A stretch of 64,000 nucleotides of DNA from a phage. The stretch lies in the sequence record PZ402301.1; one strand, given 5' to 3'. The position numbers and the translations under genes were made by a program. The stretch's first letter is position 1. The number at the start of each line of letters is the position of its first letter. Of this stretch, positions 1 through 61,643 are shown piece by piece. Below the pieces are notes generated by a model, which saw only the letters and a program-made list of their open reading frames with translations, did not search any database and was not told the origin of the DNA.

Positions 1-357
1 TATTCTTTCCGCCCTAAAAACTTAAACTATTTTGTTGATATTATAGCATATGAAGGAAAATTACCTTCAACAATAAGCGAAAAATCACTTGGAGGATATC
101 CTGTTGATAAAACTATGGATGAATATGCAGTTCATTTAAATGGACGTCATTATTATTCCGACTCAAAATTTGCTTTTTTACCAACTAAAAAGCCTACTCC
201 CGAAATAAATTACATGTACAGTTGTCCATATTTCAATTTGGATAATATCTATGCTGGAACAATAACCATGTACTGGTATAGAAATGATCATATAAGTAAT
301 GACCGCCTTGAATCAATATGTTCTCAGGCGGCCAGAATATTAGGAAGGGCTAAATAA
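1..357 (+). CDS. t: holin T, C-terminal part (5' end lies outside the window)
   Basis: Frame 1 is open from base 1 to TAA at 355-357; it is the only credible plus-strand gene at this end and sits directly upstream of asiA as in the T-even map. Confidence 0.55.
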   Translation, partial: YSFRPKNLNYFVDIIAYEGKLPSTISEKSLGGYPVDKTMDEYAVHLNGRHYYSDSKFAFLPTKKPTPEINYMYSCPYFNLDNIYAGTITMYWYRNDHISNDRLESICSQAARILGRAK

Positions 358-630
358 TTATTTGTTTGTATACATCTCTAGATATCGATATACACCCTCA
401 AAACCCTCGTTGAATTCGTCGATGAGGGTTTTCTTATCTTCTTGGGTTAATTCAGAAACAATTTTACGGAATGAATTCTGATTTAACTTTCTACCTTCAT
501 GCGTTACTCCAATCTCATTCAGAAATGCAATAAAATTAGCACGATTCTCAACAATATCTTCTCTGGAAAATTTAATCAAAATAGACGCAACAGTAATAAT
601 TTCACGAACTGTATCAATGTTTTTATTCAT
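358..630 (-). CDS. asiA: anti-sigma70 factor AsiA
   Basis: 90 aa starting MNKNIDTVREIITVASILIKFSRED, which matches the recalled T4 AsiA sequence and length. Confidence 0.9.
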   Translation of the reverse strand: MNKNIDTVREIITVASILIKFSREDIVENRANFIAFLNEIGVTHEGRKLNQNSFRKIVSELTQEDKKTLIDEFNEGFEGVYRYLEMYTNK

Positions 631-791
631 TAACTATACCACTCAATTAGTTGACTTTATTATAATATCATCAGACACTTGATTTGTAAACTGGTCTGTG
701 TTATTTTCTTCAAAAATTTTTTCTACGAATTCCTTGAACGACTCGCGTTCCTGAGCTACATTATGCTCGATTACCTTTTCAAGATTATGAC

Positions 792-1070
792 TCATTCAAA
801 ATAATCTTCAATTTCGTAATCATGGACATAAATCATTATAGTTTTTAATACATCATCAATACTTTTTCCTGGAGCTGGAATTACGTAAAAATATCCTGCT
901 TTTGAGAGGTCTTTATAAGTTCCAACCAAGAAATCATTATTCTCGAGATGTAGTTCTTCAACTAATTCATTAACAATTGAGTGGTATAAATTTGGTAGAA
1001 GCTTATATAGCTTTTCTAGAATATCAATTTTGATTGTATATTGAACCACAGATTGAGAATCAATAATCAT
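792..1070 (-). CDS. acidic 92-aa protein, Arn-like by position
   Basis: 92 aa, rich in D/E, lying between asiA and motA where T4 carries arn; assignment is by position and length only. Confidence 0.4.
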   Translation of the reverse strand: MIIDSQSVVQYTIKIDILEKLYKLLPNLYHSIVNELVEELHLENNDFLVGTYKDLSKAGYFYVIPAPGKSIDDVLKTIMIYVHDYEIEDYFE

Positions 1071-1153
1071 AGACCTTCCCCTTATGTTTCTGTTTGCGAT
1101 TAGATTCTTTAAACGCTTTCTTCTTATCCTTATGGACAGAAGCTTTATTAAAA

Positions 1154-1372
1154 TTATGTTTTGCGACTAAATTGTTCATAGTGCTGAATTACCTCTCTTA
1201 AACATTTGCATGTGAATGAAAACTTTTTAGCTACACCACATTCAAATATATGTTCTCTTAAATCACGTGTGTCAGTATATCCCATCTCAACAATAAAATG
1301 CCGTATTAGATTTTTATCTTTATCGTTGAGGGAATTAAAATAATCGGATTTTGAATTAATTTCCCTGGCCAA
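1154..1372 (-). CDS. hypothetical protein (72 aa)
   Basis: Minus-strand ORF in a co-oriented, tightly packed block; contains a CxxC pair. Confidence 0.4.
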   Translation of the reverse strand: MAREINSKSDYFNSLNDKDKNLIRHFIVEMGYTDTRDLREHIFECGVAKKFSFTCKCLREVIQHYEQFSRKT

Positions 1373-1652
1373 ATTGAATCACCTTCAGTTGACGTTTTAG
1401 TTCTTTTATCATTTCTTCGTTCATCGCAATATAAAGATCGCGTAAAGCAGGTTTTAACATTCCATTTACTGGAGAACTAAATGGACATACATAATCTTTT
1501 CCTACAAGCTTTTTAGTTAATTCCATATCACAAAACTGAAATGCGGGTTCATTGGCATAAATTCCCCAATTAGTTGACATCATTTTATTGGCATATTCCA
1601 ATGCCTGGATTTGATTCATAATTCCATCAATTTGAAACTTTTTAATATTCAT
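1356..1652 (-). CDS. hypothetical protein (98 aa)
   Basis: Minus-strand ORF whose start abuts the stop of the upstream gene. Confidence 0.4.
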   Translation of the reverse strand: MNIKKFQIDGIMNQIQALEYANKMMSTNWGIYANEPAFQFCDMELTKKLVGKDYVCPFSSPVNGMLKPALRDLYIAMNEEMIKELKRQLKVIQFGQGN

Positions 1653-2113
1653 TAGTAAAGGTCCTCAGAGTAAAGTTCTTTTTCACTACCGCCGCGTTCG
1701 ATACGTACTTGTCCAGCGTAAGTTGCAATAATCATTGCTTCTTCACGGGTCCAATAATTACTATATTGGTCAATAAACCCTTGGTCATCATCACAAACTT
1801 GTTGAGTAACTAATTGAGGTTTAACTACATCTAAAACTTCTGCCATATCTTTAGAATAATGACGAGCGCCTGGAATAACAAGAGTTCGTCCATCTTTTAA
1901 TCTAAAACGGTTGGCTGCGCAAACAATCCGTCGTTGGTACTTTTGGTTTTCATCCCAATATGCAGACTGCCAACAGATTTCAGGAACTTCTTTTAGAATA
2001 TCTTCTTCTGTGCATTTATAACCATGTGCTTTAAATTTTTCAGCAAGACTTTCTGGAGTCTCACGAGATAAAGGAACATTCAGCATTTTTAAACGATTAA
2101 TAAATGGATTCAT
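1652..2113 (-). CDS. hypothetical protein (153 aa)
   Basis: Minus-strand ORF with stop/start overlap to both neighbours. Confidence 0.45.
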
Positions 2114-2439
2114 TTAAACCATCCTTTAATACGTTGCCACAAAGTTTTCTGTTGAGCTTTGTTAACACCAATTGATCGAATAACTGGTTGAGATTCCTGG
2201 AATTCTTTATAATCAGCAAGGTAAATTTCGTAAGCTGAATCAGTAAAGGAACTTATCGCTGCCATGAAATTATTGCGAATACCTACTGGAGCATCTTTAC
2301 TTTCACGAATAATCATGTATTTGCCAGTCTTAATCTTTACGATGGTTCCAAGATAAGCTCCGTGGTACCAGATATCCCACCCCTCTTGAGTGGGTTCTGC
2401 ACAACGACGAAGTTCATTAACAATTTCTAACTTGTTCAT
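2110..2439 (-). CDS. hypothetical protein (109 aa)
   Basis: Minus-strand ORF overlapping the neighbouring stop (ATGA type). Confidence 0.45.
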
Positions 2440-2449
2440 TATTTATTCC

Positions 2450-3085
2450 TCACAGTTCAGATGCTACGGTGATTACTGCTTCAATGTTTTCTGCAGAGCG
2501 TTTAATGTCAAGATACACATTACCATTTTTAGCGATTTTGCATGACATTCCGATATCAGTAAATTTCTGAATATGATGTTCCATCATTTTGTATCCAAAA
2601 ATTCGCATATTTCCATTGTTGTTAATTTCAAAATTACGAATTCCGTGAGTGCGTTTTTCTAAAATAGCGAGATAGTTACTACGATAAGTTTCAACCTTTT
2701 TAAGAACAAATCCATTTTCATCTAAAAGTTTTAACATGAAGTCTTTATCTTCTTCCATATCGGAAGTAATCTCACGAGCTTTACGGGTTGCTCGTTTTTT
2801 CAGTAGTTCCGGAGCATTTTCCTGTGCGTATAAAGTTGCTGCATTTGAAATAATATCCTGAGCTTCACCAGTAATGATTAATCCATCACCAGATTTCTCC
2901 ACCAGGCCTTTTTTAATCAATACCCCAATATTACTATTAACTACTGCGTTACCTAAATCTGGATGCACCTCACGAACTTCTGCAGCTGTAATGAAATCTT
3001 TCTTAGCAATGGTAATTAAAATCGCAGCAGTTTTTTCATTCAGAACATCGTTAGAAGCTTTGATGATGTAAGTTACTTTAGACAT
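2450..3085 (-). CDS. motA: middle-transcription activator MotA
   Basis: 211 aa starting MSKVTYIIKASNDVLNEKTAAILITIAKKDF, matching recalled T4 MotA in length and N-terminus. Confidence 0.9.
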   Translation of the reverse strand: MSKVTYIIKASNDVLNEKTAAILITIAKKDFITAAEVREVHPDLGNAVVNSNIGVLIKKGLVEKSGDGLIITGEAQDIISNAATLYAQENAPELLKKRATRKAREITSDMEEDKDFMLKLLDENGFVLKKVETYRSNYLAILEKRTHGIRNFEINNNGNMRIFGYKMMEHHIQKFTDIGMSCKIAKNGNVYLDIKRSAENIEAVITVASEL

Positions 3086-3107
3086 TTTCTAATCTCCGTA
3101 ATTCTGT

Positions 3108-3177
3108 ATCAGTAGTTGATAGTTGTATAGTACCACAGTATGCTTTGGTTGTAAACCGTTTTGTGAAAAAAATTTTG
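3108..3177 (-). promoter_or_regulatory. T4-type early promoter upstream of motA
   Basis: Minus strand reads A/T-rich UP region, GTTTAC (-35), 18 nt, TGGTACTATACAACT (-10 block); the same ~65-bp block recurs at about 6973, 34711 and 61548. Confidence 0.6.
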
Positions 3178-3187
3178 AAATAAAAAA

Positions 3188-3207
3188 GGGAGAGCCTCGG
3201 CTCTCCC
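3188..3207 (-). terminator. GC-rich stem-loop followed by T-run (minus strand)
   Basis: gggagagcc-tcgg-ctctccc hairpin immediately downstream of the small ORF at 3214. Confidence 0.5.
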
Positions 3208-3213
3208 TAAAAT

Positions 3214-3363
3214 TTACTGCATGACTGTGATAACTGTCATGATAACACGTTGAATTCCGAACGCAAGAAGACCTCCTGCTACGGCTGGAACAACACCTAA
3301 ACCCGCCAGTAAAATGCTACCGGATACTAATGCAGCGCTTGTAATACCAATGAATGGACTCAT
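3214..3363 (-). CDS. small hydrophobic membrane peptide (49 aa)
   Basis: Hand-found ORF MSPFIGITSAALVSGSILLAGLGVVPAVAGG...; its ATG overlaps the gp52 stop; below the track length cutoff. Confidence 0.4.
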   Translation of the reverse strand: MSPFIGITSAALVSGSILLAGLGVVPAVAGGLLAFGIQRVIMTVITVMQ

Positions 3364-4688
3364 TTGATTTCCTCTAAATCTTTAGTGTATTCTGTAACTA
3401 CATCAGTAGTTTTCCAATATTCGTTTTCTTCTTTTTTAGCTTTAGCTTCTTCAGCAAGTTTCTTTGCTTCGTCGGAAGTCATATGAAAAATGTTCATTCC
3501 AACTAGTTTATCAACATAAGAAGAATACATATCAATTTTAGAAAGTTCTTCAGTCAGTTCTTTGCGAGTTTTACCTTGTACAACAATTTCACCTGAAATC
3601 ACTTTCTTAATGAAATGTGCCTTGGCAAAGGCTAAACGAAATGCTGATTCAGTTTCTTTGATTTTATTATCAATTCGTTTTTGGACATAAGTTTTACGAA
3701 CTTCAACGAAGTCTTTGATTAAATCAACTACGTTATCGTAAACTTGCAGCTTTCCTTTCTCATTAATGACGGTAATATTCTGAGAACGACGCTCAATCAA
3801 TCCAAAGTCTTTCATAATTTTTGCATGGCGTTCTTCTTCGTTATCGCTCAAAGAATATTCTTTACGGAATTTAACTTTGAAGCCAAAACCATGCTCACCA
3901 CAAGCATCATCCCATGTAATGAAGCCTTTATCTTCAAGCGGGTCTAAGATTTTACTCACGTAAGTTTCACGATCATACTTATACGGAATCTCAGTGATAT
4001 TCATTTGAGTTCGTGAAGTAAACTTGTACGTTCCACGAATTTCATATTGACCGTCAATTTCAACGACTTCACCACGAAATTCTGGGAATTCTACCTTCGG
4101 TTTAGTTACTTTCTTTCCTTGAAGAGCTTGTAGTACAGCTTTCTTGACAGAAGAAACACTATGAGGAAGAATGTAAGTTGCATAACCAGTTGCAATACCG
4201 GAAACGCCATTAAGAAGAACAGTAGGAATAATAGGCAAATAGAAAGCAGGCGGAATGTGTTCTTTATCTTGATGTACCGGAGCATATTCAGTATCTTTAT
4301 ATACGCTATAGAAATTTTTACTTACACGAGCAAAAATATAACGGCTTGCAGCTGCTTTTTGAACGGTACGAGAACCAAAGTTTCCTTGACCATCTAACAA
4401 AGGAAAGTTATTATTCCAAGTATTAGCCATCAAAGCCCCCGCGTCTTGCGCAGAGTTTTCACCATGATGATATCCAAGGTCAGCTACACCACCTGCAATA
4501 GAAGCGAGCTTGTGAAACTTATCTTTATTTCCTCGCGCCAAATCAAGAGCTCGAGCAATAACAAACCGTTGAACTGGCTTAAATCCATCAATCATATTTG
4601 GAATAGCACGATTTTCAACCGTGTACATAGCATAAGCCAATGCTTCATTATCAATGATACTTTTTAAATCGCGATTATTCAGTTGCAT
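3360..4688 (-). CDS. 52: DNA topoisomerase II medium subunit (GyrA-like)
   Basis: 442 aa with GyrA-type N-terminus (AIPNMIDGFKPVQRFV) and the T4 gp52 length. Confidence 0.9.
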   Translation of the reverse strand: MQLNNRDLKSIIDNEALAYAMYTVENRAIPNMIDGFKPVQRFVIARALDLARGNKDKFHKLASIAGGVADLGYHHGENSAQDAGALMANTWNNNFPLLDGQGNFGSRTVQKAAASRYIFARVSKNFYSVYKDTEYAPVHQDKEHIPPAFYLPIIPTVLLNGVSGIATGYATYILPHSVSSVKKAVLQALQGKKVTKPKVEFPEFRGEVVEIDGQYEIRGTYKFTSRTQMNITEIPYKYDRETYVSKILDPLEDKGFITWDDACGEHGFGFKVKFRKEYSLSDNEEERHAKIMKDFGLIERRSQNITVINEKGKLQVYDNVVDLIKDFVEVRKTYVQKRIDNKIKETESAFRLAFAKAHFIKKVISGEIVVQGKTRKELTEELSKIDMYSSYVDKLVGMNIFHMTSDEAKKLAEEAKAKKEENEYWKTTDVVTEYTKDLEEIK

Positions 4689-4692
4689 AAAT

Positions 4693-4833
4693 TTACCATA
4701 CTAGTGAATGTAGTGCCATAATAACATCAGAAATGAAAAGCACGACTTGAATTAATCCGAACATTACTCCATAATATAGTGCTACCAATAAAGTAGCAAG
4801 GGCTAATGAATAGCCCAAGATTTTCTTAATCAT
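4693..4833 (-). CDS. small membrane peptide (46 aa)
   Basis: Hand-found ORF MIKKILGYSLALATLLVALYYGVMFGLIQVV...; start overlaps the stop of the next peptide. Confidence 0.4.
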   Translation of the reverse strand: MIKKILGYSLALATLLVALYYGVMFGLIQVVLFISDVIMALHSLVW

Positions 4834-4984
4834 TGGTAGATAACAACACAAATGTTAAATATGCACACATACCCTGGGCTAAAGCTTGTGAAAACACACT
4901 ACTAGCATCGATACAGATAGTTAAAACACATGCTACTATCCAACAAATAAATGAAATAACTCCTAATAGTTTTGCAATATTCAT
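4826..4984 (-). CDS. small membrane peptide (52 aa), ac-like by position
   Basis: Hand-found ORF MNIAKLLGVISFICWIVACVLTICIDASS... preceded by AGGAAA; T4 has ac (51 aa) at this position. Confidence 0.4.
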   Translation of the reverse strand: MNIAKLLGVISFICWIVACVLTICIDASSVFSQALAQGMCAYLTFVLLSTND

Positions 4985-4991
4985 ATTTTCC

Positions 4992-5072
4992 TCACTGGCG
5001 TCCGAAGACGCCTTTAGTTTTAAGATTGTTACGATAGAACTGCATTACATGTTCGTTATGGAAATTACTCAT
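4992..5072 (-). CDS. stp: Stp peptide, 26 aa (anticodon-nuclease activator in T4)
   Basis: Hand-found [29 protein letters not shown]; 26 aa at the ndd-proximal position; its ATG overlaps the ndd stop (TAATG). Confidence 0.7.
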
Positions 5073-5527
5073 TAGTATGCCTGCAAAACAAATTTAAAGT
5101 TATCAGCCAACATACGATTCATTTCTTCAAGCGTTTGATACTCAGAATGATGATTACGAGTAAACGCTAAAGCTAACTGACCTTTTCCAAATCCCGTCGT
5201 CAGAGGTTTCATCTTAGAAGCAGGTAGATAAAATACCGTGTATGGAACATTGTTATTTGCAATAGTACGCGCAAGCTGAGATCGACGCTGGCGAATATGA
5301 CTTAGAACTGCACTGAATCCTTGCTTAGAACGCTGATTACCTACATAAAATCGCGCAGATACACACGGACTATCAAATGGACCACCAAATTTGCTTACTA
5401 AAAAGTAAAATCCAGGGTTAGACAAAATGTCTTTATGTGGAGTTCCAAAAACCCATTCACCGCCCTTGATTGTACCAATAACAGTTGCGCCTGCATTATT
5501 CAAATCAGTAACAGTCATATATTTCAT
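5072..5527 (-). CDS. ndd: nucleoid disruption protein Ndd-like
   Basis: 151 aa, the T4 Ndd length, directly upstream of stp; assigned by synteny. Confidence 0.5.
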
Positions 5528-5586
5528 GTTATTTTCCTCTAATTATTTTCTACTCCAAGGCCGCATGAATACACACGGCCGATAAA

Positions 5587-5802
5587 TTAATCGTCGCAGT
5601 CGACGCTCAATTCCCAGAACTCTTCTACGGTATAAGTTTCAGTATCATTTTCAATACAGAAACGTTCATTACTGTTATTTGCTAAAGTAGCGTTAACTGT
5701 CATTTTCTCGCTAGTGCTTTTAAGAGGTGAAATACGAATTAACTGATCACCATTATCTAAACAGAAAATTTCACCGACCTTTACATCTTTAAAAATTTTC
5801 AT
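5587..5802 (-). CDS. hypothetical protein (71 aa)
   Basis: Minus-strand ORF in the ndd-denB variable block. Confidence 0.4.
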   Translation of the reverse strand: MKIFKDVKVGEIFCLDNGDQLIRISPLKSTSEKMTVNATLANNSNERFCIENDTETYTVEEFWELSVDCDD

Positions 5803-5917
5803 AATTCACCTCAAGGAGTATAAAATCCAAACGCAGTTGTTGACCATCCCATCCAGTATGGGAAATTTGCACCAATGTAAAACATAAGAATATAAAACCA
5901 ACCACTCAGCAAATTCA

Positions 5918-6136
5918 TCATTTTACACCATTCCAAATTGTTTCAACCACAGATTTTAAGCCATTTTGATGAATGTCCATTCCGACAACTGCCATCAAAT
6001 AGATTCCAACTACAGCTGAACCTAAGGCGAAAATCAGCATGAAAATGAATAAAGCTGGAAAAATATTATCGAAAAACCATTCCATAAATGTAAAAGCACT
6101 ACGTTTACGCTTCATATTTTCCTCACATAAATCCAA
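5918..6136 (-). CDS. hypothetical membrane protein (72 aa)
   Basis: Minus-strand ORF with a hydrophobic core (IFPALFIFMLIFALGSAVVGIYLMAVVG). Confidence 0.4.
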   Translation of the reverse strand: MDLCEENMKRKRSAFTFMEWFFDNIFPALFIFMLIFALGSAVVGIYLMAVVGMDIHQNGLKSVVETIWNGVK

Positions 6137-6236
6137 AATAAGCGTTTAATACATCAATCATTAAAACGATTGGGAATATACTCAAAACTACTAGTATTAT
6201 AACTACATTCCATATAGCTTTAACAATCTTTTTCAT
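6123..6236 (-). CDS. tiny membrane peptide (37 aa)
   Basis: Internal ATG with GAGGAA SD just downstream of the promoter at 6243-6290; the 82-aa track ORF 6123..6371 runs through that promoter and is probably over-extended. Confidence 0.4.
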   Translation of the reverse strand: MKKIVKAIWNVVIILVVLSIFPIVLMIDVLNAYFGFM

Positions 6237-6242
6237 TTTCTG

Positions 6243-6290
6243 TTCCTCTGTAGTTGATAGGGTAATAATACCACAGAGGAACAGTCTTGT
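6243..6290 (-). promoter_or_regulatory. early promoter inside an inverted repeat
   Basis: Minus strand: GTTTAC, 18 nt, TATTAT; the spacer (ctgttcctctg) is complementary to the downstream SD region (cagaggaacag); near-identical copy at 60104-60150. Confidence 0.55.
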
Positions 6291-6479
6291 AAACAACTTT
6301 TTTAAAAATATTCGTAATAAATGTGAATGCCAATCACTACTGCCGAAACTTGCGCAACCCACCATGCACAAGCAATAAGTACAGAATTCAAAATTTTCAT
6401 AATAACCTCATCACAAAAGTAAATGTTAAACAAATTAATGGAATACTAATTAACCAAATAAAACACCACCACAATGAAC

Positions 6480-6752
6480 TCATAGTTCAATCTCAGCGAT
6501 TTTCATTTCATTATTATTAATAGCCGCTTTAAGACTATCTGAAAGAATTACATCCCAGTGGTCATTCATATGACCATTAACTAAACGTGTAATTTCTTCG
6601 GGAGTTGAAAAATAAGGCGTATCAGACTCCCAATGCGATAGTCCCAAGCGAGTATAAATCATACCTTCATCATCGCTAGAATATTCAACTGACACAAACT
6701 CATCAGTTATTTTATGTTTAGCGTAATAAAATTTAAATTTCATTTTACTCAA
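6480..6752 (-). CDS. hypothetical protein (90 aa)
   Basis: Minus-strand ORF overlapping the upstream stop. Confidence 0.45.
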   Translation of the reverse strand: MSKMKFKFYYAKHKITDEFVSVEYSSDDEGMIYTRLGLSHWESDTPYFSTPEEITRLVNGHMNDHWDVILSDSLKAAINNNEMKIAEIEL

Positions 6753-6955
6753 TAATCCGCTAAAAGATCGACGATTGCATCACGAAGACACTTATTCGCA
6801 ATACGTTTAAGAGCAATTTCAGTTTCTGGAGCATTTTGAATAATCATTGAATTCAATTCAGCCTCAGCAAACTGAAGTTCTTTGACTAATTCAGCTTTAT
6901 ATTTTCCTTGCCCTTTCTTAGCTTTTGCTCGTTTTAATTCAGCTGTAGTAAACAT
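6749..6955 (-). CDS. hypothetical protein (about 68 aa)
   Basis: Start placed at the internal ATG (MFTTAELKRAKAKK...) preceded by GGAGAA; the track ORF 6749..7054 extends through the promoter. Confidence 0.4.
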   Translation of the reverse strand: MFTTAELKRAKAKKGQGKYKAELVKELQFAEAELNSMIIQNAPETEIALKRIANKCLRDAIVDLLADY

Positions 6956-6972
6956 TTTATTCTCCAAATCTA

Positions 6973-7040
6973 TATCAGTTGATAGTTGTATAGTACCACA
7001 GTCCTTGTGGTATGTAAACCGTTTTGTGAAATTTTTTAAA
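6973..7040 (-). promoter_or_regulatory. T4-type early promoter
   Basis: Copy of the conserved block (UP region, GTTTAC, TGGTACTATACAACT, then GGAGAATAAAATG). Confidence 0.55.
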
Positions 7041-7593
7041 TGGAAAGATACCATCCGTTGTAGTTGCTTTTTCTTACAACTTTACGAAGGTCTTCTCTAT
7101 CACCGATGAACTTCGGAGTGTACTGGATGACACCTGGATGAATTTCTTTAGTGTTGAATATAATTATACAGTCAGCGACTTGATGATTTAGAATGGGCCC
7201 TAGATTTATTCCAGAACCGTATGGATACTCTCCGCTGCATCCGGTTGTTACCGAAATCCAACGTGAGTCAGTTTGATGTGTTTTGACTTCTACACGAAGC
7301 CCGCAGTATCTTGGGTGCGCCAGTACATCCCACGCATATGTATACGGGTCATTAACATCCTCTTGGCCTTTGTTAACATACCCGCTTAGCCAATCTGCTA
7401 CAAAAAACTCTGCATACACAGCGATACGACATCTTTCAATGACTTCTGCTTTATCCTGGTTCGGGTTTTGTTTTAAAGAGTATCTTGCTGTATCAGCAAT
7501 TTTGACCTTCATTTCACTAGTCAAATCATTGTTCGATAGGGTAAATGTCGGAATCTGAAATAGTCTCTGTAAACCTGGATTCGTTTTCTGCAT
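7036..7593 (-). CDS. endonuclease IV DenB-like
   Basis: 185 aa, the T4 DenB length, in the rIIB-proximal block; assigned by position only. Confidence 0.4.
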   Translation of the reverse strand: MQKTNPGLQRLFQIPTFTLSNNDLTSEMKVKIADTARYSLKQNPNQDKAEVIERCRIAVYAEFFVADWLSGYVNKGQEDVNDPYTYAWDVLAHPRYCGLRVEVKTHQTDSRWISVTTGCSGEYPYGSGINLGPILNHQVADCIIIFNTKEIHPGVIQYTPKFIGDREDLRKVVRKSNYNGWYLSI

Positions 7594-7855
7594 TTAGACT
7601 TTCCTTTTTACCACTAAGATAAGCGTTATGTACTTTAAGAGTGCCGTAATAAATTCGATCATTTTCATGTAAAGACTCACTGTCAAGTTCATCGAGTTTC
7701 TTTTTATCCATGACTATAACATCATTACAATAAAGAAACCCAAGTTTTTCGTGACCAAACTCGAATTTATTGCAGTACACAATATTAGCGTGATGATTTC
7801 CGTGCAGTTTAATCTCTTTTATGTCGGAATCACCGATATTCATACAATAAATCAT
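7526..7855 (-). CDS. hypothetical protein (109 aa)
   Basis: Minus-strand ORF; its 3' end overlaps the next ORF by 68 nt, so one of the two starts may be wrong. Confidence 0.4.
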   Translation of the reverse strand: MIYCMNIGDSDIKEIKLHGNHHANIVYCNKFEFGHEKLGFLYCNDVIVMDKKKLDELDSESLHENDRIYYGTLKVHNAYLSGKKESLNAENESRFTETISDSDIYPIEQ

Positions 7856-7873
7856 AATTTTTCCTTAAAACAA

Positions 7874-7890: not shown

Positions 7891-7893
7891 ATT

Positions 7894-14865: not shown

Positions 14866-15135
14866 TTAATTGAACAGTGGAGCGATGCGTTTCAGAAGAG
14901 TAGCAGCACCTTTGGCGAATTTTACATCATGAAAAACAGTTTCTTCTTCCGTTACAACACGAACTTTAATGTTTTCACAATCCCAATTTTTGCGAACAAT
15001 CTTCAAAAGCTGCAGTAAATCTTTACATTCAGCAATATCGATAACACATCCACGAGAATCTTCCATTATCGCACGATAACCATAAGCCATACCATAATCG
15101 TTGAAAGATTGTTCGATGATAATTAAGTTTTCCAT
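14866..15135 (-). CDS. hypothetical protein (about 89 aa)
   Basis: Start placed at the ATG after GGAGAATAAA (MENLIIIEQSF...); the track ORF extends a few codons further. Confidence 0.45.
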   Translation of the reverse strand: MENLIIIEQSFNDYGMAYGYRAIMEDSRGCVIDIAECKDLLQLLKIVRKNWDCENIKVRVVTEEETVFHDVKFAKGAATLLKRIAPLFN

Positions 15136-15232
15136 TTTATTCTCCAAGTTATTTTCTGTATCAGTAGTTGATATTGATATAGTACCATAATCAACTACTG
15201 ATGTATATAGTTTTATGAAAAAATTTTAAACT

Positions 15233-15730
15233 TTATGCACAGCGGGCTTTGCTATAGTGTTTAATCCAACTTTCAGGAATGGCTTTGTATGTTCCTAAAA
15301 ATACCGCGTTGTACAACTTAACGCCATCTTCTACCCATTGATCGGTAATGTATGCACACATAGCGCGAGTACGACGTTTTTGAACAACCCCTTCTTCGTC
15401 TTCGGTAAATTCAAATTCATAAGGAGCGACGAACTTAATAGCTTGACCGAGTTTCCACTTAAAGTCTACGCCTACATGCGAAGTATCAATCGTTTCAATT
15501 CCTTTAGCAGGAACAGCTTTCAAAAAAGCAGACTCAAGAAATTTCGCACGAACATAGCCAAACTGAGGTTTAGACTTTCCATCTTTAGGAATGATACGCA
15601 CTTTTACTTCAGAATCTTCATCTTTAACGCCATGTTTAAGCTGAATGCTTACAATTTCGACCAATTTTCCTGCTGCTTTAGAACGGGATTTATCAGATAC
15701 ACGAGCAATTTCACCAATATTAATAATCAT
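15233..15730 (-). CDS. hypothetical protein, paralog A (165 aa)
   Basis: C-terminal block CAYITDQWVEDGVKLYNAVFLG resembles that of the adjacent ORF 15807..16349. Confidence 0.5.
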   Translation of the reverse strand: MIINIGEIARVSDKSRSKAAGKLVEIVSIQLKHGVKDEDSEVKVRIIPKDGKSKPQFGYVRAKFLESAFLKAVPAKGIETIDTSHVGVDFKWKLGQAIKFVAPYEFEFTEDEEGVVQKRRTRAMCAYITDQWVEDGVKLYNAVFLGTYKAIPESWIKHYSKARCA

Positions 15731-34311: not shown

Positions 34312-34692
34312 TCACTTAGTCAAATTTTTTACACATGAATTATAAGAATTCACTACATACTCCATCGGAGCATTTTTACCAGTACGCCATTGGTAATTAT
34401 TAGCCCAATTAGCCCAAAGTTCAGCACAGTAATTTTCAATTTTTTCTTCACGCGTAATCACATCTGAATTACGATATGCTTGTGCAGATTCATCTGGACG
34501 AATAGCTTCGTCAAAATTCGCCTGCATTTGTTCTACTGTCTGTTTTGGAGCCTCTTTATAACACTTGACGTTAGGATTATAAAATTTGCTTGAACAGTTT
34601 ACAATTTTTCCTACATCAGACTGATTTACTACTGGTCCTTGAGCTACACAACCAGTAAGACCCAATGCAATAACCAAAATAGCGATTTTCAT
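34312..34692 (-). CDS. predicted lipoprotein
   Basis: Internal ATG after GGAGAA gives MKIAILVIALGLTGC (lipobox); the track ORF 34312..34881 runs through the promoter. Confidence 0.5.
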   Translation of the reverse strand: MKIAILVIALGLTGCVAQGPVVNQSDVGKIVNCSSKFYNPNVKCYKEAPKQTVEQMQANFDEAIRPDESAQAYRNSDVITREEKIENYCAELWANWANNYQWRTGKNAPMEYVVNSYNSCVKNLTK

Positions 34693-34710
34693 TTCATTCT
34701 CCAAATCCGC

Positions 34711-34776
34711 ATCAGTTGATAGTTGTATAGTACCACAAAGGAACCGGGATGTAAACAGTTTTGTGAAAAAATTTTT
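34711..34776 (-). promoter_or_regulatory. T4-type early promoter
   Basis: Copy of the conserved block (UP region, GTTTAC, TGGTACTATACAACT). Confidence 0.55.
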
Positions 34777-34844
34777 AATGAATTCCAGATGCCCAGAATC
34801 ATCTATTTTTCCTAAGTATAGATTTATATTACTTGTATGAAAAA

Positions 34845-34860
34845 GGGACCCGGAGGTCCC
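34845..34860 (-). terminator. hairpin downstream of gene 43
   Basis: gggacc-cgga-ggtccc followed by a T-run. Confidence 0.5.
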
Positions 34861-34873
34861 TAGATTTATTCTA

Positions 34874-37570
34874 TCAGCCAAACAAGAAGTCTAACGAAGC
34901 TTTTTCCTCATAGTCCATACCTGCCGATTCACACATGCCCGCAAGCGGTTTAACAAACGATTTTTGGAACAAAGTTGAGTAGTCAATCCAAGACAGTACA
35001 TCAGAACGAATTTCTTTTGGAAGTTCCGTACCCGACGGCCAAGCAATGCACTTGTCACCAAATGGATTTCCCTCACGTAATGGAAGAACCATTACCTTAT
35101 TTCCATCCAAAATTGGAGCTACACCTAAACCACTAACAGCTCGACGATAAGTTAGCACCCCACGAATGTGGAACGGGCATTTAAATCCTGGCCAACCTTT
35201 ATCGTCATATTTCGCTATATCGTTCGCGGTTTTTACTTCAGCAATAACTTTATAGTCAAGTTGACGATATTCTTTCTCAAAGTTCTTGTAGTATTCTTGG
35301 ACAGACTCTTCGCCTTCCTGAAGAATACGACGAATACTTTCTTCGAGAGCTTCTTGTACTGCTTTTGGTGTTGAACTCTGCTGAGTTTCCATACCCATGA
35401 TTTTTAGATGCGGTTCAGCAAATCGTTTATCTTCCATATCATAAACGTTCAGAGCATAACGTTTTTTCGCTTTCCAAAATCCACCAACACCCTTTGAACC
35501 AAGTGGAGGGCAAGAAATAGCTTCACGGTCCATATGCATCAGATGCTCGCGGTTATTCATATAATCACATAACTCACGATATGCAACATCAATCATAGGT
35601 TCCATCTTTTTCTTACCAAACTGATTCATAAATTCAACTAAATCATTTTGTTCTTTAAAGCGGTCAAGACCTACTTTTTCAATAACTTTATCTACACAAA
35701 CATATACCGAATCAGTATCACCCGCTGCGATGAAATCTTCACCATCAGTTCCACACACTTTATTCAGATATTCATTAATTTTACGAGCAATCCACTGAAT
35801 ACCAACTTGACCAAAAATTGTGATAGCAGTAGCATTTCGCAAATCATAATAGCGGAAATGAATATTACCAAGAGCACCATAAAGACTGTTGATAAGAATT
35901 TTACGGTTCAGCTGATTTGTGTTAGCAAGTGTAGCTGCTTTTTCACATTCTTCGATCAGACTATTAAGAACAGATTCAGTGTAATTCGATAATTCGTTTA
36001 AGAAATCATCATTGAATTTAACATATCGTTCAACTTCTGGTTTAGTTGAACAAGACCCTGCACCTTTCATAATAATCTTTTTAATAGCTTCGGCATTCAT
36101 TTCTTCAGCGAACATTTTCTTTTTCCAATCTTTACGTTGGAAAAATACTTTAGCGATTTCCTTTGGAATGATACCTTCTTGATGCTTATCATACATCCAT
36201 CCATTAGGAGAACAAGAATATTCATCACTTGGCTTAGGAGCTGTTCCTGCGATATATTCATGAATTGGATGAACTTTAAACTGCCCACGAATAGTCTCAG
36301 GACTAATGTTAACCTGACGAATAATGCTAGGATACAGAGACGTCAAGTCAAAACTCATAATGTATCGACGAGCAATCGGTTTAGGTTCAAATACAAATGC
36401 ACCTGGAAAACTCTGTTTAACGTGCGAACCTTGTTGAGGAATAACCTTATGTTCGCCTTTCAGTGAGTTAAAAATAATAGCGTCCCAAGTTTTAATAGGA
36501 CTCATTACACCAGAAAAAGGCATTTTAGCGTAATAAGACATACTTAAAACTAGATCAATAAACCCACGAATTTTATCAATTGCTTGAACTGATTCTACGT
36601 CAATGATGTTATAACTAATGTATCGTTGATGATTAGTCTCACGAAGTTTATTAATAGGACCATCGTACGGCAATTTACCTTTTTTGGTTTCGTGCTGAGC
36701 AACTGATTCCAAAGAGAATGATGGCAAATTAGTAAATGCGAATTTTTTGTACAAATCTAAATAATCAAGAATAGATACGCCATCAATAGAATAAATTTCT
36801 TTGCTACCGTACATATTTTGAATTAGTTTAGATTTTACTCGACCGATTGGAGAGAAGCGTTTCATACTACGTTCACCGAGAACCATTTTAACACGATTCA
36901 TGATATACGGAACGTCAAATCCCTCAATATTCCAACCGGTAAAAATAGCAGGTCGTTTCTGTTCCCAGAGATTAATATATTCCATGAGCATATCGCGCTC
37001 ATTATCAAATGGCATATAAATTACTCGGTCAAGAATTTCTTGAGGAACTTCATCACCACCTTCACAGTCAAGCTTAGCAGCTAACTTTGCATCCCATTTT
37101 GATACTGAACCGTACATTGAATTCAACAAATCAAAGACGTAAAAACGGTCGTCAATTGAATCATAATGAGTGATAGCATCAATTTCATATTCTGCTTTCA
37201 TTGGGTCAGGAAATTTATCACCAGTAACCTCAATGTCACAGTTAGCTACACGAACAAATTTTCGGTCATAAACAATTTCTGAACCATATGTATCACTGAT
37301 ATAAGCGAGTTTAAAATCGTTCATACCAAGAGCTTCGAGACCGATGTCTTCCATTCGCTTCATCCAGTCTCGTGCATCTTTCATTGATGGAAATTTTTGA
37401 GGAGCGCAATTTTTACCGTAAATGTCTTTGTACTTTGACTCTTCCTTACAATGCCTAAACATAGTCGGAAGATATTCTACTTCACGAGTACGTTCCTTTC
37501 CGTTTTCATCAATATAACGCTCAACAATATTATTTCCGACTGTTTCGATAGAGATATAAAATTCTTTCAT
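34874..37570 (-). CDS. 43: DNA polymerase gp43 (family B)
   Basis: 898 aa with exonuclease and polymerase motifs (DTDS), matching recalled T4 gp43 almost throughout. Confidence 0.95.
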   Translation of the reverse strand: MKEFYISIETVGNNIVERYIDENGKERTREVEYLPTMFRHCKEESKYKDIYGKNCAPQKFPSMKDARDWMKRMEDIGLEALGMNDFKLAYISDTYGSEIVYDRKFVRVANCDIEVTGDKFPDPMKAEYEIDAITHYDSIDDRFYVFDLLNSMYGSVSKWDAKLAAKLDCEGGDEVPQEILDRVIYMPFDNERDMLMEYINLWEQKRPAIFTGWNIEGFDVPYIMNRVKMVLGERSMKRFSPIGRVKSKLIQNMYGSKEIYSIDGVSILDYLDLYKKFAFTNLPSFSLESVAQHETKKGKLPYDGPINKLRETNHQRYISYNIIDVESVQAIDKIRGFIDLVLSMSYYAKMPFSGVMSPIKTWDAIIFNSLKGEHKVIPQQGSHVKQSFPGAFVFEPKPIARRYIMSFDLTSLYPSIIRQVNISPETIRGQFKVHPIHEYIAGTAPKPSDEYSCSPNGWMYDKHQEGIIPKEIAKVFFQRKDWKKKMFAEEMNAEAIKKIIMKGAGSCSTKPEVERYVKFNDDFLNELSNYTESVLNSLIEECEKAATLANTNQLNRKILINSLYGALGNIHFRYYDLRNATAITIFGQVGIQWIARKINEYLNKVCGTDGEDFIAAGDTDSVYVCVDKVIEKVGLDRFKEQNDLVEFMNQFGKKKMEPMIDVAYRELCDYMNNREHLMHMDREAISCPPLGSKGVGGFWKAKKRYALNVYDMEDKRFAEPHLKIMGMETQQSSTPKAVQEALEESIRRILQEGEESVQEYYKNFEKEYRQLDYKVIAEVKTANDIAKYDDKGWPGFKCPFHIRGVLTYRRAVSGLGVAPILDGNKVMVLPLREGNPFGDKCIAWPSGTELPKEIRSDVLSWIDYSTLFQKSFVKPLAGMCESAGMDYEEKASLDFLFG

Positions 37571-50066: not shown

Positions 50067-50537
50067 TTAATCATGTTTCCACACCCCATCGGTATTTGAC
50101 CAAAGTCGCTGATTATCTGATCCTCGCCACAGCTTTTTGGTCGGAAGATTTTTCTCATACTTCCCATCAATAATAACATCAACATATTTAAGCATTTCTA
50201 GTTGTTTAATATCTTCAAACTTATATCCTGTCCACAACCAAATGCTTTTATTGGGATAAAGATTTTTTACTGTTTGAACAATGCAATGAACAACATCTCG
50301 GTTATCAGGATAGAGAGGGTCTCCTCCAGTTATAGTTAATCCTTCTATATAATCATTATTCAAACATTCAATTAATTGTTCTAGTGTTTCACCAGTGAAT
50401 GGAACACCATTTCTAGCATTCCATGTTGATTTATTATAACACCCTTCGCATTTATGCAAACAACCTGTAACGAAAAGAACGACCCTGCATCCAGGGCCAT
50501 TCACAAAATCGCAGGGATAAAATCTATCGTAATTCAT
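50067..50537 (-). CDS. nrdG: anaerobic ribonucleotide reductase activase NrdG (radical SAM)
   Basis: 156 aa with CxxxCxxC cluster motif (CLHKCEGC). Confidence 0.9.
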   Translation of the reverse strand: MNYDRFYPCDFVNGPGCRVVLFVTGCLHKCEGCYNKSTWNARNGVPFTGETLEQLIECLNNDYIEGLTITGGDPLYPDNRDVVHCIVQTVKNLYPNKSIWLWTGYKFEDIKQLEMLKYVDVIIDGKYEKNLPTKKLWRGSDNQRLWSNTDGVWKHD

Positions 50538-52428
50538 TGGTGTTTAACCCTATGCATGATTTCTTTATTTTTGCCAAGATTAAATCCGCGCTCGTTCGGA
50601 TTTCCCAAATAACCGCAAGTTCTTCTTATGGTGTTCATCTTTTTAGGATCAGTTTCTCCACAAATAGAACAAACAAATCCGTTTTCAGTAGGAGTCATTT
50701 CATGGGTACTTCCGCATGTAAAACATTTATCTACTGGCATATTAACACCAAAATAATCTAAATGTTGTGCAGCATAATCCCATACAGCCTCAAGACCTTT
50801 TAGGTTATTTTTCATATCAGGAAGTTCAACATAAGAAATGTGACCACCTGTCGCAATGAAATGATACGGAGCTTCGCGAGAAATCTTTTCAAACGGAGTA
50901 ATATTTTCTTCTACTGAAACGTGGAAACTGTTAGTATACCAGCCTTTATCGGTAACATCTTTTACACTTCCATATTTTTCGGTATCAAGTTTACAGAAGC
51001 GATAGCACAGGTTTTCAGCAGGAGTAGAATATAAGCTAAAAGCAAAACCAGTTCTTTCAGTCCATTGTTTAAGATGAATATTCATTTTAGTTAAAATTTC
51101 TTGTCCAATATCACGACCGACAAGAATATTCAATTCGTGAATACCAATGTATCCTAGGGACACTGAACTTCTACCGTTTTTAAATAACTCAATTATATCG
51201 TCATCAGGTTTAAGACGAACCCCGAATGCACCTTCTTGATAAAGAATAGGAGCAACAGTAGCTTTAACCCCTTTTAAGGAACTAATTCTACACATCAAAG
51301 CTTCAAAACATAAATCCATTCGCTCATTGAACAATTCAGTAAATTTCTGTTCATTGAACTGTGTTCCAATATAAGAATCTAACGCAATACGAGGAAGATT
51401 CAGTGTTACAACACCAAGATTATTACGTCCATCAAGAATTTCATTACCAGTCGAATCTTTCCATACGCCCAAGAAACTACGACAACCCATTGGAGAAACA
51501 GGAATAGATGAACCGGTGATAGCTTTATTGTTCTTAGCCGAAATGATGTCAGGATACATTCTTTTACTTGCACACTCTAGAGCAAGCTGCTTAATATCAT
51601 AGTTCGGATCGTCTTTATAAAGATTAACACCTTCTTCAACGAACATAACAAGTTTAGGGAAAATAGGAGTTATCCCGTCACGACCAAGGCCTTTAATACG
51701 ATTTTTCAGAATTGCTTTCTGAATCATTCGTTCAGTCCAGTCAGTTCCCATGCCAAATGTAATTGTTACAAAAGGCGTTTGTCCGTTTGAACTAAAGAGA
51801 GTATTTATTCAGTCCAGTCAGTTCCCATGCCAAATGTAATTGTTACAAAAGGCGTTTGTCCGTTTGAACTAAAGAGAGTATTTAGTTCATATTCATAAGC
51901 TTGGAATGCATCGTATACGTCTTTTTCTGTTTTAGATTGGGCATAATTCAACGCATCAGCGATTTGCCATTTTTCTGCATCCTCAATATGTTTTGCATAG
52001 GTGCGTTTAACATAAGGAGAAAGGACTTTATCTACATTCGCAAAAGTCGTTCCACCATATTGATGGGAAGCAACCTGTGCAGTAATTTGTGCCATAATTG
52101 CAGTAGCAACACCGATTGATTTAGGAGTTTCAATCTGTGCATTACCGAGCTTAAATCCGTTCTCAAGCATTCCTTTTAAATCTACTAAACAGCAATTAGT
52201 AAATGGAAGAGCAGGGGAATAATCAATATCATGGAAATGAATAATTCCGCTTTCATGCGCTTTCATAATAAAAGACGGGACCATATTTTTGGCAATGTGT
52301 TTAGACACAATACCAGCCATAAGGTCCCGTTGAGTTGGAAAAACACGAGAATCTTTATTAGCATTCTCGTTTAAAAGGTCTTTATTAGTTTTATGAATCA
52401 ATCCTTCAATTTCTTTTTCAATTGTCAT
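50534..52428 (-). pseudogene. nrdD: anaerobic ribonucleotide reductase nrdD, split by a frameshifting tandem duplication
   Basis: Two collinear ORFs (207 aa and 405 aa): the first ends ...FGMGTDWTE and the second begins MGTDWTERMIQ; the C-terminal part carries the glycyl-radical motif (RRTCGYLG) and a Cys4 zinc ribbon. Confidence 0.7.
51731..51884. repeat. perfect 77-bp tandem direct duplication inside nrdD
   Basis: ttcagtccagtcagttcccatgccaaatgtaattgttacaaaaggcgtttgtccgtttgaactaaagagagtattta occurs twice in tandem; 77 is not a multiple of 3, and the junction creates an in-frame TAA. Confidence 0.8.
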
Positions 52429-59568: not shown

Positions 59569-60096
59569 TTATGCGAGTACCGTCTTTAACCGTTCTTCAA
59601 ACTTCCGAAGAGTATTTTGGCGTTCAGCTCTTTGCTTTTTGTAAGTTTCAATACGCTCTGAAATGAGAGTGTATCGTTCATTTACTGATTCTTTCATAAA
59701 ATCAGGAATTTCACGAGAAGCTTTAATCTCGTCAAATTTATCAATAACAGCTTGCTCTTCAGCAATTAAGTTATCATACATTAAAATATCTTTCTTGATG
59801 AACTCAATATCTTCTTGAGTTACACGAGATAATTTAGATGCTTTATCCTTTTTGTACTGTTCGTTAGTATCACGAGACCAGTGTAATGTACGATTTTTAT
59901 TCGTATTTTTGTAAATTTCTACAATACCAATCTCATCAATAATAACGATCCAATTCCAACGGGATTTGTAAATTTGTCCTCCATCAACTGTGATTTCACC
60001 TCCGATTGAGATGTCGTTAAAGAACTTGCTTTGTGCTTCAGATTTAAATTTACCATCGTTGTAATTTACCAAGTTGAAAATATCTTTAGCGTTCAT
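59569..60096 (-). CDS. hypothetical protein with coiled-coil tail (175 aa)
   Basis: ATG preceded by GGAGGAACAGAAA; tail ERIETYKKQRAERQNTLRKFEERLKTVLA. Confidence 0.5.
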   Translation of the reverse strand: MNAKDIFNLVNYNDGKFKSEAQSKFFNDISIGGEITVDGGQIYKSRWNWIVIIDEIGIVEIYKNTNKNRTLHWSRDTNEQYKKDKASKLSRVTQEDIEFIKKDILMYDNLIAEEQAVIDKFDEIKASREIPDFMKESVNERYTLISERIETYKKQRAERQNTLRKFEERLKTVLA

Positions 60097-60103
60097 TTTC
60101 TGT

Positions 60104-60150
60104 TCCTCCGTAGTTGATAGTTGTATAGTACCACAGAGGAACAGTCTTGT
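60104..60150 (-). promoter_or_regulatory. early promoter inside an inverted repeat
   Basis: Near-identical copy of the 6243-6290 module (GTTTAC, TGGTACTATACAACT, flanking ctgttcctc / gaggaacag inverted repeat). Confidence 0.55.
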
Positions 60151-60156
60151 AAACCA

Positions 60157-60471
60157 CTAAAAGAAACTTCTTTCACAATTTTTTCCACTGAACCATGCAC
60201 TTACCGCTTTCTTAGTCTCGGGAGCAGTGTTATCCATAAACCATTCAAAGGCAGCCTTTTTATGATTCTGGAGGGCTTCTCGGGCTTTAATCTGCTCACG
60301 GTCTATTAACACTAACATATGAGCCTTTCTTGTCACCATGGGCTTCTTATGATTTTTTGAATATTCCCAGTCATTTGTCCATCGCATTGTCGTTGCGAAC
60401 TGAAATACTGCTTCTTTAATTTTAGTTTCGTAAATTTCACGAGCCTTTGAGTATAACATCACTACCTCCAT
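60157..60471 (-). CDS. hypothetical protein (104 aa)
   Basis: Minus-strand ORF. Confidence 0.45.
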   Translation of the reverse strand: MEVVMLYSKAREIYETKIKEAVFQFATTMRWTNDWEYSKNHKKPMVTRKAHMLVLIDREQIKAREALQNHKKAAFEWFMDNTAPETKKAVSAWFSGKNCERSFF

Positions 60472-60560: not shown

Positions 60561-61529
60561 TTATTTCAGAAGAGTAACCTCAGCAATTTCTTCCCAACCG
60601 TTTTTGTCGGTCATAATAAAGTCAGCAAGATAAAGAGCAGTACGCAGTGAAACATTGCGTAAACGGTTAACATTAACTTTCATCCATGATAATGCTTTAT
60701 AAGTTTCTTCATCAGAAAGACCACGCTTTTGCATCATGTCAGTTGAAAGAATAACATCTTCAACCCTGACCATAATTTCTTCATTAGTGTGAACACCCAA
60801 ATCCAAATAAACCGAGCGGGACACTAATGCTTGTAAATGTGGAGCAAGTTTAGTACCACGGTCTAATTCGCGGTCAATGTCAACGTTTGTGATAAAAACA
60901 ATCGTTCCTTTAAATTCAAACTCACGGTCAATGCCTTTTTCTTCTAAGTAAGAAGATGCAGTGCTCCAGCAGACTTTACGGGTCTCTCCGGTGTCCAGAG
61001 CGGCTTTTAGAAGATTAAGAATGTCCATATCAGAGAAAACATCCACATCATCAATCAAAAGGACAGAATTCTCTTCACGATTATTCCAAAGCTGTTCATA
61101 AAGACCAATACCAGAGATTTTACCATTAATGCTTTTATATTCAATGTATCCAATATCATTTGCTTTATTTAAAGCTTTATCTAAAGAATACGTTTTACCA
61201 ATACCTGCTGCGCCAGAGATAATCAATGAACGAATATTTCCGTTAATAATACCATTCGTCATCATTCCCATAACATTAAATCTTTTATTAATGCGGGTTT
61301 TCATATCTTCATACGATTCTTTAACTTCTTCAACTTTTACACCATCATATGAAATATCTGATTTGTAAACCCAAACACCGCGACGTTTACCGTCAATTTC
61401 AACAAAAACTTTACCATCTCCTTGTGCATCTACCGGAGCATTATCTGGGAACCATTCGCCTAAGAGCTCAAAAGTTCCAGAGATTTCTTTACCGAAGTAG
61501 ATACCCTTATTGATAGTTACAGTTTTCAT
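60561..61529 (-). CDS. P-loop ATPase (AAA+-like)
   Basis: Walker A (GAAGIGKT) and Walker B (VLLIDDVDV); start taken at the ATG after GGAGAATAAA (track starts at an upstream TTG). Confidence 0.6.
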   Translation of the reverse strand: MKTVTINKGIYFGKEISGTFELLGEWFPDNAPVDAQGDGKVFVEIDGKRRGVWVYKSDISYDGVKVEEVKESYEDMKTRINKRFNVMGMMTNGIINGNIRSLIISGAAGIGKTYSLDKALNKANDIGYIEYKSINGKISGIGLYEQLWNNREENSVLLIDDVDVFSDMDILNLLKAALDTGETRKVCWSTASSYLEEKGIDREFEFKGTIVFITNVDIDRELDRGTKLAPHLQALVSRSVYLDLGVHTNEEIMVRVEDVILSTDMMQKRGLSDEETYKALSWMKVNVNRLRNVSLRTALYLADFIMTDKNGWEEIAEVTLLK

Positions 61530-61547
61530 TTTATTCTCCAAATCCGT

Positions 61548-61615
61548 ATCAGTTGATAGTTGTATAGTACCATAAAGCTTTATGCCTGTAAACCGTTTTG
61601 TGAAAAAATTTTAAA
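61548..61615 (-). promoter_or_regulatory. T4-type early promoter
   Basis: Copy of the conserved block (UP region, GTTTAC, TGGTACTATACAACT). Confidence 0.55.
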
Positions 61616-61623
61616 ATAAAAAA

Positions 61624-61641
61624 GGGAGCCCGAAGGCTCCC
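61624..61641 (-). terminator. UUCG-type hairpin
   Basis: gggagcc-cgaa-ggctccc followed by a T-run, downstream of the ORF ending at 61644. Confidence 0.5.
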
Positions 61642-61643
61642 TA

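Follow-up and report, generated by a model that had tools for sequence, protein, structure and literature searches.

The repeated units and their genes

The window, by which we mean the whole 64,000-nt stretch of phage DNA analysed here (PZ402301.1), is, judged from its sequence, the early region of a Tequatrovirus, a T4-like coliphage. In a database nucleotide comparison, positions 1-12000, which include motA, gene 52, rIIB, rIIA and gene 39, were ~97% identical to many Tequatrovirus phages, and essentially all genes of the window are carried on the minus strand. An earlier note on this DNA had reported a promoter cassette repeated at about 3108-3177, 6973-7040, 34711-34776 and 61548-61615, always in the same orientation. 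We found all four blocks at these places and every copy on the minus strand, so the common orientation held, but the letters quoted were the reverse complement of the true, minus-strand reading. Its count of at least four was sound as a minimum: these four are joined by a fifth copy in front of nrdC.8 and by looser relatives in front of ndd.4 and cef. The sequence GGAGAATAAAATG, which it gave as following the promoter, is exact in two copies only, with GGAGAATGAAATG in the imm.1 copy and GGAGATTAGAAAATG in the motA copy.

We defined the unit as extending from 26 nt upstream of the -35 hexamer through the ATG, and named the genes at the four loci from the T4 reference annotation and local BLAST (Table 1). 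The four full units were 75-84% identical in pairwise gapped alignment, the longest exact runs between them were 22-27 nt, and successive copies were separated by 3.9, 27.7 and 26.8 kb. An unbiased repeat search returned the four copies (family D2) and a family of eight members (D1) as the largest dispersed families of the window. The 23-nt core GTACTATACAACTATCAACTGAT was matched with at most three mismatches at five positions (3111, 6974, 34711, 60109 and 61548), all on the minus strand, against no match in 100 dinucleotide-preserving shuffles. Copy 1 has its T4 orthologue at 163650, and the 68-aa ORF behind copy 2 is of the RB32ORF266c type.

Table 1. Coordinates of the cassette copies, their relatives and the associated hairpins in the window
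Feature	Position	Strand	Length	Context and parts
Cassette copy 1	3083..3182	-	100 nt	In front of motA; UP 3182-3157; -35 GTTTAC 3156-3151; spacer 3150-3133; -10 TACTAT 3132-3127; predicted +1 A 3120; SD/RegB-type site GGAGATTAGAA 3097-3087; ATG 3085-3083
Cassette copy 2	6953..7045	-	93 nt	Just after denB, before 68-aa ORF 6955-6749; -35 7019-7014; -10 6995-6990; predicted +1 6983; GGAGAATAAAA 6965-6955; ATG 6955-6953
Cassette copy 3	34690..34782	-	93 nt	Downstream of gene 43, in front of imm.1; -35 34756-34751; -10 34732-34727; predicted +1 34720; GGAGAATGAAA 34702-34692; ATG 34692-34690
Cassette copy 4	61527..61619	-	93 nt	In front of nrdC.10; -35 61593-61588; palindromic spacer CATAAAGCTTTATG; -10 61569-61564; predicted +1 61557; GGAGAATAAAA 61539-61529; ATG 61529-61527
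Fifth copy, hybrid	60094..60180	-		In front of nrdC.8; TGG-TACTAT-ACAACTATCAACT block, different UP element
Looser relative	6234..6320	-		In front of ndd.4; -10 TATTAT then TACCCTATCAACT
Looser relative	15133..15234	-		In front of cef; cassette UP element, degenerate -35 ATATAC
Terminator hairpin AGGGAGAGCCGAGGCTCTCCCT	3187..3208	-		9-bp stem, 6 GC pairs; ends motA.1 transcription unit
Terminator hairpin AGGGACCTCCGGGTCCCT	34844..34861	-		After gene 43, ~60 nt upstream of copy 3
Terminator hairpin AGGGAGCCTTCGGGCTCCCT with T-run	61623..61642	-		After nrdC.11, directly upstream of copy 4
Hairpin family AAGGGCCGAAGCCCTT	7866-7895, 8103-8130, 13376-13405, 37622-37651, 39792-39821, 44502-44531, 48151-48178			

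For annotation, the consequence is that the true start codons lie directly 3' of the cassettes while ORF callers run through them. The earlier note had attributed such over-extension of several genes to TTG or GTG starts. TTG starts do extend ORFs 34312..34881 and 60561..61541, and ORF 6749..7054 begins at an upstream ATG; no GTG start was involved, and motA is not over-extended.

A locus-specific spacer between two conserved blocks

Read in the direction of transcription, the unit consists of an UP element, the -35 hexamer GTTTAC, an 18-nt spacer, the -10 hexamer, the start region, a leader, the Shine-Dalgarno sequence (SD) and the ATG. The A/T-rich UP element, TTTTCACAAAAC, lies directly before GTTTAC in the four copies, which have AAAATTTTTTCACAAAAC(G/T) in common. 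All four spacers are 18 nt long and end in TGG before the -10 TACTAT. The start region reads ACAACT-A(+1)TCAACT, with variants ACAACT-A-TCAACT(ACT)GATAC, and the SD and start codon of the copies read GATTTGGAGAATAAAATG; the block that the copies share spans TACTAT...CTATCAACT.

We compared the four copies with 13 other early promoters of the same window. The 16 nt after the -10 hexamer were 94% identical among the copies and 33% identical among the other promoters, and the UP block was 68% identical against 36%, which bears out the proposal that the copies share more identity than independent promoters would. The 18-nt spacer was 49% identical among the copies, 39% among the 13 others and 41% between copies and others. 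The spacer is thus no more alike than background, and the repeat is not a plain duplication but two conserved blocks around a locus-specific spacer. The exact runs are as short as they are because this unrelated spacer interrupts them.

A terminator hairpin lies 4-60 nt upstream in three of the four copies, and at copy 1 the T-run of AGGGAGAGCCGAGGCTCTCCCT continues into the UP element. Copy 2 has no terminator because its UP element overlaps the last denB codons (stop at 7036-7038).

Correspondence to T4 early promoters

Approximately 20 minus-strand promoters of the window fit GTTTAC-N18-TAnnnT, and the cassette copies form a sub-family of these. In all four, the arrangement GTTTAC-N18-TACTAT is equivalent to TTTACA-N17-TACTAT, and an independent consensus scan returned TTTACA-17-TACTAT with an upstream TG at each. 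T4 itself carries units at motA, ndd.6, imm.1, nrdC.10, nrdC.8, cef, ndd.4 and mobD.5. GenBank entry X75802 annotates the T4 orthologues of copy 2 (the denB-proximal copy) and of the ndd.4 relative as promoters, with boxes -35 GTTTACA and -10 TACTAT and with the feature ending at the A seven nt after the hexamer. The published T4 transcription map has a unit starting at map unit 27,044, which coordinate arithmetic places on the CTATCAA A of the T4 imm.1 copy. For the motA and nrdC.10 copies, the match to T4 units is by sequence orthology only.

T4 early promoters combine UP, -35, TGn and -10 elements with additional regions of consensus (Hinton 2010, PMC2988021). The copies resemble those described there and in X75802 in the UP element, -35 GTTTAC(A), TGn and -10 TAnnnT, and in strand, loci and predicted start (the A that follows the -10 hexamer by seven nt). 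They differ in forming a sub-family with -10 TACTAT, ACAACTATCAACT and a shared leader, a block that the other window promoters lack. Together, the T4 architecture, the T4 loci, the X75802 annotation and the mapped T4 start at 27,044 support the early-promoter role put forward earlier, and the copies are probably active promoters in this phage too. Transcription from the predicted starts (3120, 6983, 34720 and 61557) would give leaders of 35, 28, 28 and 28 nt, respectively.

A RegB/S1-type site in the leader

According to Durand 2006 (PMC1702504), RegB and ribosomal protein S1 cleave an 11-nt single-stranded site of consensus GGAGRAYARAA, usually within the SD and with GGAGAAUAAAA as the T4 optimum, and motA RNA is a good RegB substrate in T4; nrdC.8 RNA is documented as moderately cleaved. 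The 64 kb contain the exact optimum three times, each time on the minus strand: in copies 2 and 4 and in the cef relative. The sites of copy 3 (GGAGAATGAAA) and of the motA copy (GGAGATTAGAA) each deviate once, by a G at position 8 and by a U at position 6, respectively. As in the sites described by Durand et al., the optimum of copies 2 and 4 lies in the SD and in unstructured RNA. The predicted minimum free energies of the four leaders were -0.9 to -1.9 kcal/mol (z 0.3 to -0.35 against shuffles). The leaders thus fold no better than shuffled sequences, which led us to reject structured RNA as the reason for leader conservation; nothing in the 64-kb window matched an Rfam family.

With a RegB-type site at the SD, the 3' block of the cassette would be an SD doubling as a RegB/S1 site. 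By their sequence, the leaders of copies 2, 3 and 4 would probably be cleaved by RegB, whose gene should lie beyond the window end, going by the T4 map position.

Distribution among phages

A query with an 88-nt cassette returned 3320 places in 546 phage records, approximately six per genome and almost all in Tequatrovirus; the window has five to seven copies, all on the minus strand. A scan of IMG/VR for the core found it in five genomes, enough for an initial comparison but not for statistics. In a Mosigvirus a full copy precedes an e.8-like gene, and in a Gelderlandvirus the -10/leader block is present at 96% identity, while UP element and -35 are absent. Serratia phage Muldoon, of another genus, has retained TTTTCACAAAACTGTTTAC and GATACTATAACACTATCAAC in its motA promoter. 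Occurrence of the -10/start block outside the genus points to functional constraint on it, besides any copying.

The Gelderlandvirus block belongs to Salmonella phage STML-198 (NC_027344, 701-747), where it lies directly after a gene for a ModA-like ADP-ribosylase. The 3' end of this gene resembles the 3' end of T2_097, a gene inserted at the T2 nrdC.10 cassette. The resemblance suggests that a gene-plus-cassette module may have moved between genera.

Gene content differs between relatives at all four cassettes

We compared the flanking gene content of each cassette in related phages. At all four loci, related phages differed by ORF indels (gained on one side or lost on the other) or ORF replacements, abutting or inside the cassette. 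This agrees with the gene shuffling proposed before and fits the model of promoter early stem-loop (PeSL) elements discussed below.

At the denB locus, three different ORFs stand behind the same cassette in different phages, and 125 records contained the ORF of the window, compared with 501 in which the flanks were shared. The denB-proximal copy of T4 and the T4 imm.1 copy have 58 nt in common with one mismatch, and this match takes in the first 12 nt of the imm.1 ORF. In T4 (NC_000866, ~167019-166993; X75802, 1085-1111) there is here an unannotated ORF of eight codons, ATGAAAATCGCTGAGATTGAACTATGA (MKIAEIEL), which opens with the same 12 nt as imm.1 and whose stop overlaps the ndd.6 start (ATGA). 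On sequence grounds this mini-ORF looks like the scar of an exchange between copies 29 kb apart.

The gene 43/imm.1 locus was ~250 bp longer in 29 of 43 evenly sampled full-length matches, and phage Lutter has an extra 78-aa ORF between the cassette and imm.1. At the nrdC.10 locus, 17 of 26 sampled matches had an indel. In phage HY03, similarity to the window at this locus ends inside the cassette, after CAACTATCAA; two ORFs and a second promoter follow, with a leader that ends in the TTGGAGAATAAAATG of the cassette, and the module is bounded by a 13-nt direct repeat, CTATCAAAACAAA, beginning at CTATCAA. T2 carries an extra gene at this locus with terminator, UP element and GTTTAC on both sides.

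The motA locus was ~340 bp longer in 8 of 27 sampled matches. In phage 107, the cassette and motA are separated by a 75-aa ORF that has a promoter of its own; this module is bounded by a 23-nt direct repeat, CTATCAAATAAATGAACTGAAAC, that also begins at CTATCAA. Yersinia phage ZN18 (NC_054945, ~2640-2700) has only half a cassette, having lost the T-run, UP element and -35. The motA.1 terminator of ZN18 is fused directly to the spacer (AAAGCATACTG), and the -10/start block precedes an extra 75-aa ORF.

The spacers are locus-specific and retained across genomes, and so for the most part are the UP and leader variants. Locus-specific spacers mean that the copies have not been homogenised over their whole length. 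Our check for concerted evolution, which sought variants common to the copies of one genome but differing from those of other genomes, gave one candidate, a 3-nt ACT indel in the leader, absent in three window copies and present in two T4 copies; it lies in a slippage-prone ACTACT repeat, and the other variable sites were locus-specific.

A probable expression cassette and linker

We consider it probable (about 85%) that each block is a complete early expression cassette of the T4 type and also a linker at which small ORFs are exchanged, as in PeSL elements. Transcription from upstream would usually be ended by the terminator hairpin. A very strong sigma-70 promoter (UP, -35 GTTTAC, TGn, -10 TACTAT) would come next, which the unmodified host RNA polymerase could recognise right after infection, and transcription would start at the A of CTATCAA. 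The leader, of 28-35 nt and predicted to be unstructured, would hold the SD GGAG inside the 11-nt site preferred by RegB/S1. The outcome would be a short burst of early expression, with the gene on at once and its mRNA then inactivated. General recombination of the phage would insert, delete or swap small ORF modules at the cassettes. Since each genome holds about six copies of the UP/-35 and the -10/start/leader blocks, all in one orientation, these blocks would act as short patches of homology.

The earlier note had seen in the copies long dispersed repeats that serve as substrates for homologous recombination. Junctions do fall at the cassettes, but the uninterrupted blocks are at most 27 nt, and identity of 22-27 nt is short for efficient homologous recombination. 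Essential genes such as gene 52 and gene 43 lie between distant copies, so that crossovers there would not be viable, and viable shuffling would be local, between neighbouring promoters. The junctions were probably made by homologous recombination rather than by another process.

Could the copies instead be independent strong promoters kept alike by selection alone, with no role in recombination and with indels that are coincidental in plastic regions? Several findings would fit: spacers unrelated between copies and specific to their locus across genomes, UP and leader variants that mostly follow the locus and not the genome, exact runs of just 22-27 nt, and the Serratia phage motA promoter, in which retention of the UP/-35 and TACTAT..CTATCAAC blocks points to functional constraint. 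Much of the similarity between copies may indeed be kept by selection on function and not by exchange. However, equally canonical promoters of the same window differ in start region and leader (33%), so function alone is not enough. Moreover, direct repeats of the cassette core flank the modules at two loci, HY03 and one other genome (L016) have a junction within the cassette, and the first 12 nt of imm.1 carried by the T4 denB-proximal copy are a direct footprint of exchange. We regard selection alone as an unlikely account. Chance similarity, or an artefact of A/T-rich intergenic DNA, can hardly be credited: A/T-richness applies to the UP part only, whereas the core was never matched in shuffled sequence, identity after the -10 far exceeds background (94% against 33%), and the same units recur in 546 phage records.

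A more specific proposal is that the core TACTAT-N4-CTATCAA serves a sequence-specific recombination or DNA-binding protein as its dedicated site, giving integron-like gene capture. Genomes diverge immediately past CTATCAA at two unrelated loci, distant genera have kept the core, and Arbiol et al. (PMC2839356) raised a helper protein as a possibility. Yet the bounding direct repeats run 13-23 nt beyond CTATCAA, so that the crossover could have occurred anywhere in the repeat, and similarity across the whole family simply stops at CTATCAA; another block (terminator, UP and -35) flanks the T2 insertion, and the published systems have no identified recombinase (Arbiol 2010, PMC2839356). We judge this proposal highly improbable, and a site-specific crossover at CTATCAA in particular is unlikely because the repeats extend well past it. 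That the 17-nt core (-10 to +5) serves, in addition to its promoter function, as an attachment or recognition site for a phage factor is very doubtful; if it did, T-even phages would own a site-specific, integron-like means of capturing and expressing small ORFs.

The cassette as expression unit and linker is already known, in that the descriptions of T4 early promoters and of PeSL both fit it. PeSL are composite terminator/promoter/SD/ATG linkers for modular shuffling, described first in RB49/phi1 (Arbiol 2010, PMC2839356) and later for the T4/PST pair, where the consensus is TTTACW-N17-TAYWAT (Comeau 2014, PMC4122927). Among the published examples is the exchange of ndd.4/ndd.5 between T4 and PST, which concerns the copy 2 locus (Comeau 2014, PMC4122927). 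Like PeSL, the present units join a terminator or stem-loop to an early promoter, SD and ATG, occur in many copies of one orientation and are associated with ORF indels and replacements between relatives. Unlike them, copy 2 has no stem-loop, the T-even -35 is GTTTAC and not TTGACA, and the T-even stem-loops are plain terminators that precede the promoter; mini-circles have been demonstrated for RB49/phi1 only, and the present group is known from sequence footprints. Integron cassettes and morons, an analogy drawn by Arbiol et al. (PMC2839356), share with the units small ORFs that come and go with their own expression signals at recurrent sites. In contrast to integrons, the cassettes have no integrase and no attC-type site, and homology is supplied by the regulatory sequence itself; for morons, regulatory sequences are not believed to be the means of movement.

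What we add is minor: the block-by-block mosaic with an unrelated spacer, the 3' block as an optimal RegB/S1 site, and CTATCAA as a recurrent module boundary. The units are a clean example of a known principle, namely that a phage uses its regulatory signals also as linkers in the exchange of gene modules, and the small ORFs beside them are a variable, possibly host-adaptive part of the genome.

Related promoters with spacer-leader hairpins

In the nrdC.8 copy, the spacer CTGTTCCTCTGT and the SD region ACGGAGGAACAG are complementary, forming a predicted hairpin of 15 bp (-23.2 kcal/mol, z -5.3). The ndd.4 relative has the spacer and leader of the nrdC.8 copy (79% identity, 26-nt exact run; both in family D4). 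The cef relative belongs to family D1; its leader ends in GGAGAATAAAATG, and a perfect 13-bp inverted repeat, ATCAGTAGTTGAT/ATCAACTACTGAT, brackets its -10.

An 18-nt spacer strongly complementary to the leader of the same promoter just after the -10 was present in 9 of the 20 early promoters, with duplexes of -11 to -24.5 kcal/mol (P < 5 × 10−5, permutation of own against other leaders). These are the minus-strand promoters at 60180-60094, 6320-6234 and 15234-15133 and six whose GTTTAC begins at 29287, 28799, 26320, 16909, 15804 and 49033. Their hairpins span the -10 and have z-scores of about -5. Four of them (nrdC.8, ndd.4, 26320 and 16909) hold the SD within the 3' arm, so read-through RNA would hide the SD, and transcripts started at the promoter would carry one arm only. 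Stem-loops between or over promoter boxes in RB49/phi1 have been read as attenuators (Arbiol 2010, PMC2839356).

Other features of the window

A second dispersed family consists of near-identical terminator hairpins, AAGGGCCGAAGCCCTT, with GGGC/GCCC stems and the minus-strand loop UUCG (Table 1). Arbiol 2010 (PMC2839356) cites Mosig et al. 1998 for a GGGC/GCCC motif at T4 deletion end-points.

The minus-strand gene nrdD contains a 77-bp tandem duplication at 51726-51879, with copies 97% identical, exactly at the site of the T4 group I intron (I-TevII). It splits the gene into a 207-aa ORF (52428..51805, ending ...GMGTDWTE*) and a 405-aa ORF (51751..50534, starting MGTDWTERMIQ...). None of 30 related records sampled across the ranking had the duplication, the corresponding span being at most 244 bp against 321 in the window. 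A knock-out mutation, a two-piece gene and an error of assembly are all conceivable.

The large subunit of topoisomerase II is a single ORF of 606 aa (11513-13333, minus strand), for which database matches give the name 'gp60plus39'. T4 differs in having genes 39 and 60 split, with mobA and a 50-nt translational bypass.
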